Assembly: GCF_050920415.1 (NCBI RefSeq)
Contig: NZ_CP169309.1
DNA length: 64,000 nt
Source of the DNA: Escherichia coli
GTDB lineage: Bacteria; Pseudomonadota; Gammaproteobacteria; Enterobacterales; Enterobacteriaceae
Reading direction: 5' to 3' (one strand)
Each line of letters opens with the position of its first letter. Positions within the stretch are counted from its first letter, which is position 1. A program made the translations under genes and the position numbers. Shown here piece after piece: positions 24,434 to 27,672 of the stretch. Under the pieces are notes generated by a model that searched no databases, was not told the origin of the DNA, and saw nothing but the letters and a program-made list of their open reading frames with translations.

Positions 24434-24742
24434 ATGGATTATTTAATTCCAGTTTGTCTGGTATTGCTGGGATTGCTCGCGATCTTCACCCCCAATTGGC
24501 TGATCCCTGTTTTTATCGTCGTGGGGGGATGGCTGGGGGTACTTGCCTGGGGTTGGCTCTGGCTAATGATTTTTTTACCTTTACTTAACGGTGTCGGGCT
24601 TGCTTATGCCCTGTGGTTGATGTTCAAAAGGCCATCCATAGCATCCCGCTTGGTTGCTGCATGCTGTGTTATCTCCGTCATTCTGATGTTAGCGCTTTAT
24701 TATGCTTTCCTGACTATGCCGCCGTTCCCGCCTCAGCACTAA
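24434..24742 (+). CDS. Hypothetical small, Trp-rich membrane protein (102 aa, ~3 predicted TM segments)
   Basis: Intergenic ORF MDYLIPVCLVLLGLLAIFTPNWLIPVFIVVGGWLGVLAWGWLWLMIFLPLLNG...; no strong SD, so coding status is uncertain. Confidence 0.35.
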   Translation: MDYLIPVCLVLLGLLAIFTPNWLIPVFIVVGGWLGVLAWGWLWLMIFLPLLNGVGLAYALWLMFKRPSIASRLVAACCVISVILMLALYYAFLTMPPFPPQH

Positions 24743-24774
24743 GCCTGATAGCCAGAGGCTATCAGGCAACACTT

Positions 24775-26973
24775 TTACTTCCTGCGCAACAATCTTAACG
24801 CATTCGCTGTCACCAGCACCGTCGCACCCGTATCTGCCAGCACCGCCAGCCATAGTCCGGTCATCCCTAACAGCGTTGTGACGAGGAAGATCCCTTTCAG
24901 CCCCAGCGCAATGGTGATGTTCTGGCGGATATTGGCGTGAGTGGCGCGTGCCAGTTCAATCATCTGCGCCAGGCCGCGCAGGTGGTTATGGGTTAATGCT
25001 GCGTCGGCGGTTTCCAGCGCCACATCTGTGCCACTGCCCATTGCAATCCCTATGGCGGCAGCTTTCATGGCGGGCGCGTCGTTAATACCGTCACCGACCA
25101 TCGCCAGAGGCGCATGTTGATTCAGCTCGGTCACCGCTTTGACTTTATCTTCTGGTAATAGGCCCGCTTTAAATTCCAGCCCCAGTTCACCGGCGATTGC
25201 CGCCGCTGCGCGTGGATTATCGCCAGTGAGGATCACTCCTTTGACGCCCAGGGCGCTCAGTTCGCTGATGGCAGTTGCGGCGTCGGCGCGCAGGGTATCC
25301 TGCAATGCAATGACACCCAGCACTTCATCGTTACGCACCACCAGTACTACCGTTTGCCCGGCGCTTTCCAGTTCGTTAATTAAACCAGCAAATGCAACAA
25401 CCGGATGTTTTCCGGCAGCGCATATCAACACGCGCTCGCCGTTAATCAGTGCTTCAATACCAGACCCGACCAGCGCCCGCTGTGATTCGGCGGCAGGAAT
25501 GGTTAGCGCAGCGACCTGTGCTTCACGCACAATGGCCTGCGCCAGTGGATGCGTCGCGCCTTGTTCTACCGCCGCTGCCAGCGACAGCAGTTCAGATTCA
25601 CTAATCCCCGTTGCCGGATGAATCGCGGTAACGCGCGGTTTACCGACGGTCAGCGTACCGGTTTTATCAAACGCCACCTGGGTAACACGACCTAGTTGTT
25701 CCAGCGCCGCACCGCCTTTAATCAACGCCCCACGACGCGCTGCTGCCGCCAGCCCGGAGGTAATCGCCGCAGGTGTTGAGATCACCAGCGCACACGGGCA
25801 GCCAATCAGCAGCAGCGTCAGCCCTTTATAAATCCACTCTTGCCAGCTGGCGGCAAACAGCAGCGGCGGCACCAGAGTTACCAGCAGAGCGACCGCCATA
25901 ATCGCTGGCGTGTAAATACGGCTGAAACGGTCGATAAACCGCTCAATCGGCGCGCGGCGCTCTTCGGCTTCTTCGATCAGTTTCAGAATGCGGTCAATGG
26001 CGCTGGCACCCGGTTCTGACAACACTTCCAGGGTAACCAGACGGTCTACGCTGGTGGCGCCTGCAGGAACTTTATCACCCGTCGCGCGCTCCACCGGAAT
26101 GGATTCGCCGGTCAGGGCGCTTTCATCAAAACTGGCAAAGGGCGAGAGCAGTTTACCGTCGGCAGGTAAACGCCCACCTGCCGCAACTTCGATAACATCG
26201 CCCGGACGCAGGCTGTTAATTGCTACCTCTTCACGCTTGCCATTACGCAGGCGCGTGGCGGTTTCCGGTTTCAGCGCCATTAACGCGCTGACCCCTTGAC
26301 GTGCGCGGCTGGCGGCCCAGCCTTCCAGTCGTTCACCAATCAAAAATAGCAGCAACACCATCGCAGCTTCGGCGGTTGCGCCAATAAACAGCGCGCCAAT
26401 GGCGGCTACGCTCATTAACGTTTCAATGGCGAAGTAGCTGCCAGATTTGATCAGTCGTAATGCCTGGCGCGCAATCGGGTACAGCCCAACCAGCGTGGTC
26501 GCGATAAACGCCAGTTGCCCGAACGGATGATTAAACTGCTCCAGACCCCAGCTGATTGCCATCAACACGATTAGCGTAATCAGCGGCAGATTCTCTTTCA
26601 GGCGTGATTCTTGTTGTTCGTCGGCGGACTGTTCATCGCGCAGGGAATAGCCCGCTTTTTGCACCGCAGATTCAACCTGGGCACGGATGTCATTGTCGGC
26701 ATCCACCACCAGTTTTTCGGTGGCGAACAACACCTGCACCTGATTCACGCCTGCAAGCTGGCGCACGGCATTTTCTACCTTGCGCGCACAGGCGGCGCAG
26801 TCCATGCCGCTGACTTTCCAGCTATAGCGGGTGCCGGAGACGTTTTCAGAGAGCGTTGGCGTGCTGGAACATGCGCCGTCGCAGCAACAGTCGTTGGCGT
26901 TCTGAACCGTGGTTAGCGGTTTGAACGCGGCAAATTGAGGGGCTTTCTTGCCGTGATTGTCAGGAGTCGACAT
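24775..26973 (-). CDS. zntA: Zn/Cd/Pb-exporting P1B-type ATPase ZntA
   Basis: 732-aa ORF with N-terminal metal-binding GMDCAAC, CPC transmembrane motif and DKTGT phosphorylation site. Confidence 0.95.
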   Translation of the reverse strand: MSTPDNHGKKAPQFAAFKPLTTVQNANDCCCDGACSSTPTLSENVSGTRYSWKVSGMDCAACARKVENAVRQLAGVNQVQVLFATEKLVVDADNDIRAQVESAVQKAGYSLRDEQSADEQQESRLKENLPLITLIVLMAISWGLEQFNHPFGQLAFIATTLVGLYPIARQALRLIKSGSYFAIETLMSVAAIGALFIGATAEAAMVLLLFLIGERLEGWAASRARQGVSALMALKPETATRLRNGKREEVAINSLRPGDVIEVAAGGRLPADGKLLSPFASFDESALTGESIPVERATGDKVPAGATSVDRLVTLEVLSEPGASAIDRILKLIEEAEERRAPIERFIDRFSRIYTPAIMAVALLVTLVPPLLFAASWQEWIYKGLTLLLIGCPCALVISTPAAITSGLAAAARRGALIKGGAALEQLGRVTQVAFDKTGTLTVGKPRVTAIHPATGISESELLSLAAAVEQGATHPLAQAIVREAQVAALTIPAAESQRALVGSGIEALINGERVLICAAGKHPVVAFAGLINELESAGQTVVLVVRNDEVLGVIALQDTLRADAATAISELSALGVKGVILTGDNPRAAAAIAGELGLEFKAGLLPEDKVKAVTELNQHAPLAMVGDGINDAPAMKAAAIGIAMGSGTDVALETADAALTHNHLRGLAQMIELARATHANIRQNITIALGLKGIFLVTTLLGMTGLWLAVLADTGATVLVTANALRLLRRK

Positions 26974-27004
26974 GGCATCCTCCGGTTAAGTTTTTCTCAT
27001 TAAC

Positions 27005-27040
27005 CGAAGGATACACTCTGGAGTCGACTCCAGAGTCAAG
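27005..27040 (-). promoter_or_regulatory. zntA promoter with MerR-type ZntR operator
   Basis: -35 TTGACT (minus strand, 27034-27039) followed by the 22-bp perfect palindrome ACTCTGGAGTCGACTCCAGAGT (27015-27036), about 40-70 bp upstream of the zntA start. Confidence 0.75.
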
Positions 27041-27045
27041 TTTTA

Positions 27046-27672
27046 TCAGAGATACAGCGAGCGGACGATGAGGAAGTGACCGGCAAAATAACAAGCGGCG
27101 GCAATCGCGTGGTCCGCACGGAAGCGTCGGCGATAGTGGCTACCCAGCCAGACAAAGTTACTGATAAACAGCAACGAAGCGCCGACAAATGCAGAAAGTG
27201 CCGGAGCGGTTGGACGGAAGAACCACAGTTCACCTGCCAGCCATACCATCACCAGCGTCATGCCGATAAACGTGCAGATAGGCCAACGATACTCTTCCAG
27301 ACGCGTCCAGATAATCGCCAGTAACAGCGCACCCAGCACCAGCAACACCAGCGGCAAAGGCCAGAAGAAAGAGAGCGTCATCTGGCTGGCGAAATAGATG
27401 GTGTACAGCAGGTGCGAGAGGAAAAATGCGCCGATGGCATACATCAGACGTTGACGTGGCAACAGGGTTAGCGCATCGCCCAGCAGTGAGGCGCACAATC
27501 CCGCCAGCACCAGATAGCTAATGGCGTCGAACATCGGCGCTTGCCAGGCCAGCAACAGCAGGAGAAGAAGGGTTAATGGTTTAAATACCCAGCGTTGCCA
27601 GGTTGGCCCACGATACGATGCATCCACAGATAGCCATGCGGAAAGACAGACAGCGATAAACGACCAAAGCAT
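27046..27672 (-). CDS. yhhN: YhhN family inner membrane protein
   Basis: 208-aa hydrophobic ORF, synteny. Confidence 0.85.

Follow-up and report, generated by a model that had tools for sequence, protein, structure and literature searches.

The closest described counterpart of the element analysed here is PzntA, the zntA promoter of Escherichia coli K-12, with its ZntR operator. According to the literature, this promoter has TTGACT as its -35 hexamer and a spacer of 20 bp, where other members of the family have 19 bp (PMC3431237), and the 20-bp figure is also given by PMC7911910. The 22-mer ACTCTGGAGTCGACTCCAGAGT is the ZntR-site consensus and is located inside this 20-bp spacer (PMC1526738). 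In one paper, the spacer is put at 19 bp (PMC9189660), though our direct count from TTGACT to TATCCT gives 20, as in the three other papers. ZntR is known to protect the -35, the spacer, and the -10 from DNase I, as do MerR and CueR (PMC3431237), and its site, which is the spacer, mediates weak repression at low zinc and about 10-fold activation at high zinc (PMC9189660). A passage of PMC2611976, citing Outten 1999, has Zn-ZntR altering the DNA conformation into one that is a more favourable substrate for RNA polymerase. No ZntR operator other than PzntA is known in E. coli (PMC4507017).

Here, we describe the corresponding element in a 64,000-nt stretch of E. coli chromosomal DNA (contig NZ_CP169309.1; the window), which an initial annotation had placed at 27005-27040 and called a ZntR operator/promoter upstream of zntA. 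This assignment agrees with the identity to K-12, the published 22-mer, and the downstream gene, which is ZntA. Likewise, the proposal of a long-spacer MerR-family promoter activated by distortion on Zn binding corresponds to the published account of a K-12-identical sequence, since the papers treat this exact sequence. We therefore hold, with a probability of about 0.97, that the element is PzntA, the sigma-70 promoter of zntA, with its ZntR operator, and that it works by the published mechanism. No evidence contradicting this explanation was found.

Layout of the zntA promoter and its neighbourhood

The features of the promoter and the two flanking genes are as follows.

27046-27672, minus strand (same as zntA): yhhN, the upstream gene (Pfam PF07947)
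27039-27034, minus strand: -35 hexamer TTGACT of PzntA, the last 3 nt of which are the first 3 of the operator
27015-27036: ZntR operator ACTCTGGAGTCGACTCCAGAGT, a perfect 22-bp palindrome, from sequence reading and a repeat finder
27033-27014, minus strand: spacer occupied by the operator, 20 bp by direct count (the optimum is 17 bp)
27013-27008, minus strand: -10 hexamer TATCCT, from sequence reading
26998-27003, minus strand: transcription start, expected near 27001 if the common ~7-nt distance from the -10 applies
26983-26978, minus strand: Shine-Dalgarno GGAGGA of zntA, 4 nt upstream of the ATG
24775-26973, minus strand: zntA, encoding a 732-aa Zn(II)/Cd(II)/Pb(II)-exporting P-type ATPase (open reading frame list, NF033775, and RefSeq annotation of a near-identical record)

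The 22-bp palindrome noticed in the initial annotation is indeed perfect, as the repeat finder returned two arms of 11 nt (27015-27025 and 27026-27036) that are 100% complementary and separated by zero gap. Its reported overlap with the TTGACT hexamer on the zntA strand amounts to 3 shared nucleotides (ACT), and its other end stops 1 nt short of the -10, with the span 27005-27040 taking in both hexamers and the operator. The sigma-70 hexamers are 20 bp apart and not 17, which is a spacer of the long kind (19-20 bp), and the dyad-symmetric operator at 27015-27036 lies within and overlaps it, as is characteristic of MerR-family long-spacer promoters. Because the 20-bp spacer is outside its accepted range of 16-18 bp, a generic promoter scan was blind to PzntA and found no promoter there. 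Downstream, the leader comprises the 34 nt between the -10 and the zntA ATG (26973), and transcription from PzntA would be expected to start about 7 nt after TATCCT, at ~27001. In the supplements of one genome-wide transcription-start data set, zntA (b3469) is absent.

When aligned with K-12 MG1655, the operator 22-mer is the same, and the whole stretch from -35 to ATG is identical but for one A of the leader A-run. This run (26991-26995) is A5 in the window and A6 in K-12, and it sits in the loop of the leader stem described below. Comparison with the known zntA promoter and ZntR footprinting had been named as checks in the initial annotation. The former gives this match from -35 to ATG except for one leader A, and the latter exists in the literature as the DNase I protection reported for K-12 PzntA (PMC3431237).

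By the published mechanism, a dimer of the MerR-family protein ZntR would bind the 22-bp palindrome, which occupies the overly long spacer (20 bp) from TTGACT to TATCCT. Without metal, the promoter would be weak because its -35 and -10 hexamers are out of phase. Binding of Zn(II), and also of Cd(II) or Pb(II), to ZntR would distort and underwind the spacer, and the hexamers would then be realigned for RNA polymerase, with zntA transcribed from about 27001. The sequence establishes the anatomy, the K-12 identity, the conservation, and what the regulated gene and its regulator are, whereas we take ZntR binding, the metal response, and the DNA distortion from the literature and infer the exact +1. 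The PzntA/ZntR operator found in the window is already described from E. coli K-12, so for this operator-promoter there is nothing new beyond a correct annotation. As a system, it is a textbook case of activation by DNA distortion and provides widely used whole-cell biosensors for Zn, Cd, and Pb with their sensing part.

The zntA product scores 1444.9 bits against NCBIfam NF033775 (cutoff 1240), and the gene under control is a metal efflux gene (ZntA), as befits a MerR-family metal-responsive promoter. The stop codon of yhhN (27048-27046) lies 6 to about 10 nt upstream of the -35, and the gene order yhhN-zntA-tusA is common to the window and K-12. The regulator gene zntR is located outside the window. 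In NZ_CP169399.1 (E. coli MFDS1022581), whose segment 289822-353821 has 4 mismatches to the window over 64,000 positions, zntR is found at 468360-468785, about 150 kb from the site. Its product is identical to K-12 ZntR at 140 of 141 residues, scores 206 bits against TIGR02043 (cutoff 168), and passes both ZntR equivalog models. Accordingly, a cognate MerR-family regulator is present in this near-identical genome. The residue that differs is the penultimate one, with Asp taking the place of Gly (G140D; L006:6361-6786).

Several other observations were made in the window. The tusA-zntA spacer (24220-24774) measures 555 bp, as against about 100 bp in K-12, and holds an open reading frame on the plus strand (24434-24742) for a very hydrophobic product of 102 aa, which gave no match in Pfam and NCBIfam. 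The full insert was found in just 264 of 5,426 E. coli genomes, and ~90 bp of it (query positions 101-191) are a repeat with a median of 5 occurrences in a genome. A GTATGA-N16-TCATAC sequence occurs at 19341-19368, just upstream of nikA (17729-19303, minus strand), with one match in the window and zero in shuffles. This sequence is of the NikR operator type. The annotation of the near-identical record places the start of the window (1-272) within the 3′ end of a transposase gene, that of an IS110-like IS621, with pitA as its neighbour.

Conservation and competing readings of the palindrome

Within the window, ACTCTGGAGTCGACTCCAGAGT is the longest perfect palindrome, with the runner-up having arms of 9 nt, and it remains a single copy even with up to 3 mismatches allowed, whereas matches occurred in 0 of 100 shuffles. 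When the window was resampled 100 times under a first-order Markov model, arms of 11 nt were reached in just one resample. Given its rank in the window, its rarity in the resamples, and its absence from the shuffles, a chance origin of the palindrome is unlikely. The second-longest perfect palindrome is CGGATCAGCGCTGATCCG (13430-13447, 9-nt arms), which lies within the yhhJ coding sequence.

The 42-bp core (27003-27044) is carried without any difference by 5,399 of 5,415 E. coli genomes, while a 221-bp stretch that includes flanking coding DNA is at least 99% identical in just 3 genomes and 90-95% identical in 1,698. Across species, a scan for CTCTGGAGTNNACTCCAGAG with one genome per species returned at least 120 loci, and a ZntA homologue starts downstream in 104 of those listed, with most of the remaining listed loci ending next to yhhN. 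Scored at positions left free by the search pattern CTCTGGAGTNNACTCCAGAG, the T, T, G, and A of the -35 are kept in 104/104, 103/104, 103/104, and 104/104 other species among the matches listed, and the outer A and outer T of the palindrome are conserved in 100% and 94% of the 104 listed loci. In the -10, read as TAnnnT, the first T is found in 99, the A in all, and the last T in all of the 104 listed loci, though the middle three positions vary. The 20-bp spacing, and with it the fixed register, is kept in 104/104 of the listed related loci, while columns upstream of the -35 carry just 0.1-0.6 bits. This pattern is what one would expect of a functional promoter-operator unit. Moreover, yhhN is directly upstream and on the same strand in 96 of the 104 listed related loci.

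A promoter-operator with TTGACTCTGGAGTnnACTCCAGAGTGTAnnnT is shared by metagenome bins of Acidobacteria and Gemmatimonadetes (L009:93-130, L068:5550-5590, L056 ~4505, L016 ~3877, and L046 ~11447). In several of these bins, the site is directly upstream of a MerR-family gene followed by a small DUF2703-like open reading frame, and not of a zntA homologue. One such MerR-family gene (L009, 138-575) matches the Pfam families MerR-DNA-bind and MerR_1.

Alternatively, the main role of the palindrome might be played in RNA, as a hairpin that closes the yhhN transcript and serves either as an intrinsic terminator or as a 3′-end stabiliser. The hairpin does begin 10 nt past the yhhN stop codon, would form a 9-bp stem in RNA, and occupies a yhhN-zntA gap that offers no other room for a terminator, and a scan flagged a terminator-like site here. 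That flag is on the plus strand, however, where no gene ends, and on the strand of yhhN and zntA the stem is followed by GUGUAUCCUUCGG without a U-tract. A 66-nt fold around the hairpin is ordinary when compared with shuffles (z = -1.8), and a terminator would have no need for the fixed -35/-10 register that is kept in 104 listed species. Furthermore, the literature on ZntR binding concerns this exact sequence, which argues against the hairpin as the main role. As the gene strand has no U-tract and the scan flagged the plus strand only, we rejected termination as the main role of the palindrome and consider the hairpin reading as a whole improbable, although the operator hairpin may have a secondary role as RNA.

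Even less credible is a palindrome without any regulatory role in this strain, arisen by chance or neutrally, for instance around its SalI-type GTCGAC core. While 1 of 100 Markov resamples of the 64-kb window did produce a perfect palindrome with arms this long, the palindrome is invariant in about 5,400 E. coli genomes with variable flanks, precedes zntA homologues in over 100 species among the matches listed with the -35 and -10 in register, and is identical to an experimentally characterised site. Equally implausible is its use in this strain by a different MerR-family regulator such as CueR or SoxR. A palindrome in a long spacer is a layout common to operators of the family, and ZntR itself scores weakly on the CueR, MerR, and CadR models. 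Nevertheless, the CueR site (ACCTTCCC-N5-TGGAAGGT, with a 19-bp spacer) is unrelated in sequence to ACTCTGGAGTCGACTCCAGAGT, the consensus published for ZntR is this very 22-mer, the near-identical genome encodes an intact ZntR (99% identical to that of K-12), and zinc induction is reported lost on deletion of zntR in K-12. Thus, from the conservation and the match to the ZntR consensus, both chance and another MerR-family user are effectively excluded, and PzntA with its ZntR operator is the reading that we retain.

A predicted stem in the zntA leader

Three further features concern RNA that would be read through this region from yhhN.

27000-27014, minus strand: 5′ arm of the leader stem, GTATCCTTCGGTTAA (RNA GUAUCCUUCGGUUAA), made up of the -10 and the discriminator and upstream of the expected +1
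26975-26989, minus strand: 3′ arm of the leader stem, TTAACCGGAGGATGC (RNA UUAACCGGAGGAUGC), which contains the Shine-Dalgarno
26960-26971, minus strand: operator right half copied at the zntA start codon, GTCGACTCCTGA, with 11/12 matches to GTCGACTCCAGA

In the predicted stem, 27014-27000 pairs with 26989-26975 through 15 base pairs, 2 of which are G-U. The segment complementary to the ribosome-binding site (RBS) lies upstream of the expected +1, which is the arrangement of fold-back inhibition. For read-through RNA covering 27048-26945, the computed fold has -40.7 kcal/mol (z = -6.05), was equalled by 0 of 200 shuffles, and consists of the operator hairpin and the 15-bp stem GUAUCCUUCGGUUAA/UUAACCGGAGGAUGC. 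In RNA that starts at about 27002 and lacks the 5′ arm, there is no notable structure (z = +0.25). We then calculated the energy needed to open the RBS, taken as the region from 2 nt before the Shine-Dalgarno to +6. It is 6.5 kcal/mol for a PzntA transcript with a start anywhere in 27003-26998, as against 22.4 kcal/mol for the read-through RNA. In controls with the 13 upstream nucleotides shuffled, the opening energy had a mean of 8.2 and a maximum of 16.9 kcal/mol, with 22.4 being reached by 0 of 200 shuffles. Moreover, zntA is the extreme among 57 genes in the window, with an opening difference of 15.9 kcal/mol, the next being 7.5 and most less than 2.

On the gene strand, a U-tract terminator is absent between the yhhN stop and the -35. 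A search of 26850-27150 against Rfam produced only a sub-threshold chance match (20 bits vs a gathering score of 80), and our literature search returned nothing relevant on zntA leader structure or on yhhN-zntA read-through.

The copy of the operator right half, GTCGACTCCTGA, starts at the G of the zntA ATG. Among the listed matches, the 13 nt from this G agree with GTCGACTCCAGAG at 12 or 13 positions in 23 of 102 related loci, where the form is ATG TCG ACT CCA GAr. In many Enterobacteriaceae, the left arm of the operator is also complementary to the first zntA codons. The copy in these codons could be a pairing partner for the operator left arm in read-through RNA, or else a third ZntR half-site.

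Turning to relatives, we folded 89 unique leaders, which are kin to one another, and obtained a median fold z of -4.3, with the main stem starting inside or at the -10 in 82 of the 89. The stem sequence itself is wholly different between Enterobacteriaceae, Erwiniaceae, and Morganellaceae-like loci. In the Enterobacteriaceae, the read-through opening energy exceeded the native one in 59/59 leaders (mean 17.6-19.8 vs 6.3, with 8.5 when shuffled), whereas the 40 leaders of other families had 7.7-8.4 for read-through vs 6.6 for native and thus no clear excess. In Erwiniaceae and others, the hairpin is present and the RBS is not buried (18/40). The mean unpaired probability of the Shine-Dalgarno showed just a small difference over the 102 listed loci (0.28 vs 0.36), so a clear read-through effect is confined to opening energies and to Enterobacteriaceae.

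As for covariation in the Enterobacteriaceae, 86.5% of cells were paired in the stem that we specified, as against 30-55% for slid partners, a control biased in favour of the stem because the stem was specified by hand. Double changes in the stem are few (16 cells at 4 pairs), and RNAalifold gave no consensus structure for 54 Enterobacteriaceae leaders. The top of the leader hairpin, TAATGAGAAAATTATCATTA, is conserved, loop included, in most Enterobacteriaceae other than Escherichia (e.g. L026, L019, and L126), and the E. coli window is without this segment. A ‘Fur-like box’ has been given for the yhhN-zntA region of Yersinia pestis (PMC2231364). We considered a Fur/Zur box reading of TAATGAGAAAATTATCATTA and rejected it, since by eye ~10 nt (ATTATCATTA, the right half) fit one half-box and the segment is absent from the window.

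From these calculations, we suggest tentatively, and with more doubt than belief, that the zntA promoter might double as a translational insulator against yhhN read-through, by analogy with the fold-back inhibition of IS10. This reading rests on computation and on the inferred +1. Since the yhhN stop abuts the -35 with no terminator between them, RNA read through from yhhN would carry the complementary arms, and the -10/discriminator arm would bury the zntA RBS in it. Transcripts started at PzntA would lack the 5′ arm and so be translatable. If this is true, zinc export would be governed strictly by initiation that ZntR activates, however much transcription arrives from upstream, and the locus would illustrate how a tightly metal-gated gene placed right behind another, with no terminator, escapes leaky expression. 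The stem would then matter as well for PzntA fragments in reporter constructs into which upstream transcription reads.

Comparison with described systems

With K-12 PzntA (Brocklehurst et al. 1999; Outten et al. 1999), the element in the window shares both its identity and its neighbours, yhhN and zntA, the differences being the strain background, the leader run (A6 in K-12 and A5 in the window), and one ZntR residue (G140D). PmerT and its regulator MerR (Tn501, Tn21) resemble PzntA in having a TTGACT -35 hexamer and a dyad operator in an over-long spacer, and also in the metal-triggered switch from repressor to activator with DNA underwinding. In contrast to PzntA, PmerT has a spacer of 19 bp, and its operator differs in sequence. 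Moreover, merR is a divergently transcribed neighbour of its target, whereas zntR is unlinked and does not regulate itself. PcopA with CueR, also from E. coli, has the family architecture in common with PzntA and also a distortion mechanism, which for CueR is supported by cryo-EM of activation complexes, but differs in its 19-bp spacer, its operator (ACCTTCCC-N5-TGGAAGGT), and the monovalent metals that are sensed.

For the predicted leader stem, the nearest parallel is the fold-back inhibition of IS10, a system linked with Davis, Simons and Kleckner in 1985. There, transcripts coming from outside reportedly carry a segment complementary to the RBS, which transcripts from the element's own promoter lack, and only those from its own promoter are said to be translated. 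Unlike in IS10, the complementary segment predicted here from the zntA sequence would belong to a metal-regulated promoter on the chromosome, as its -10 and discriminator.
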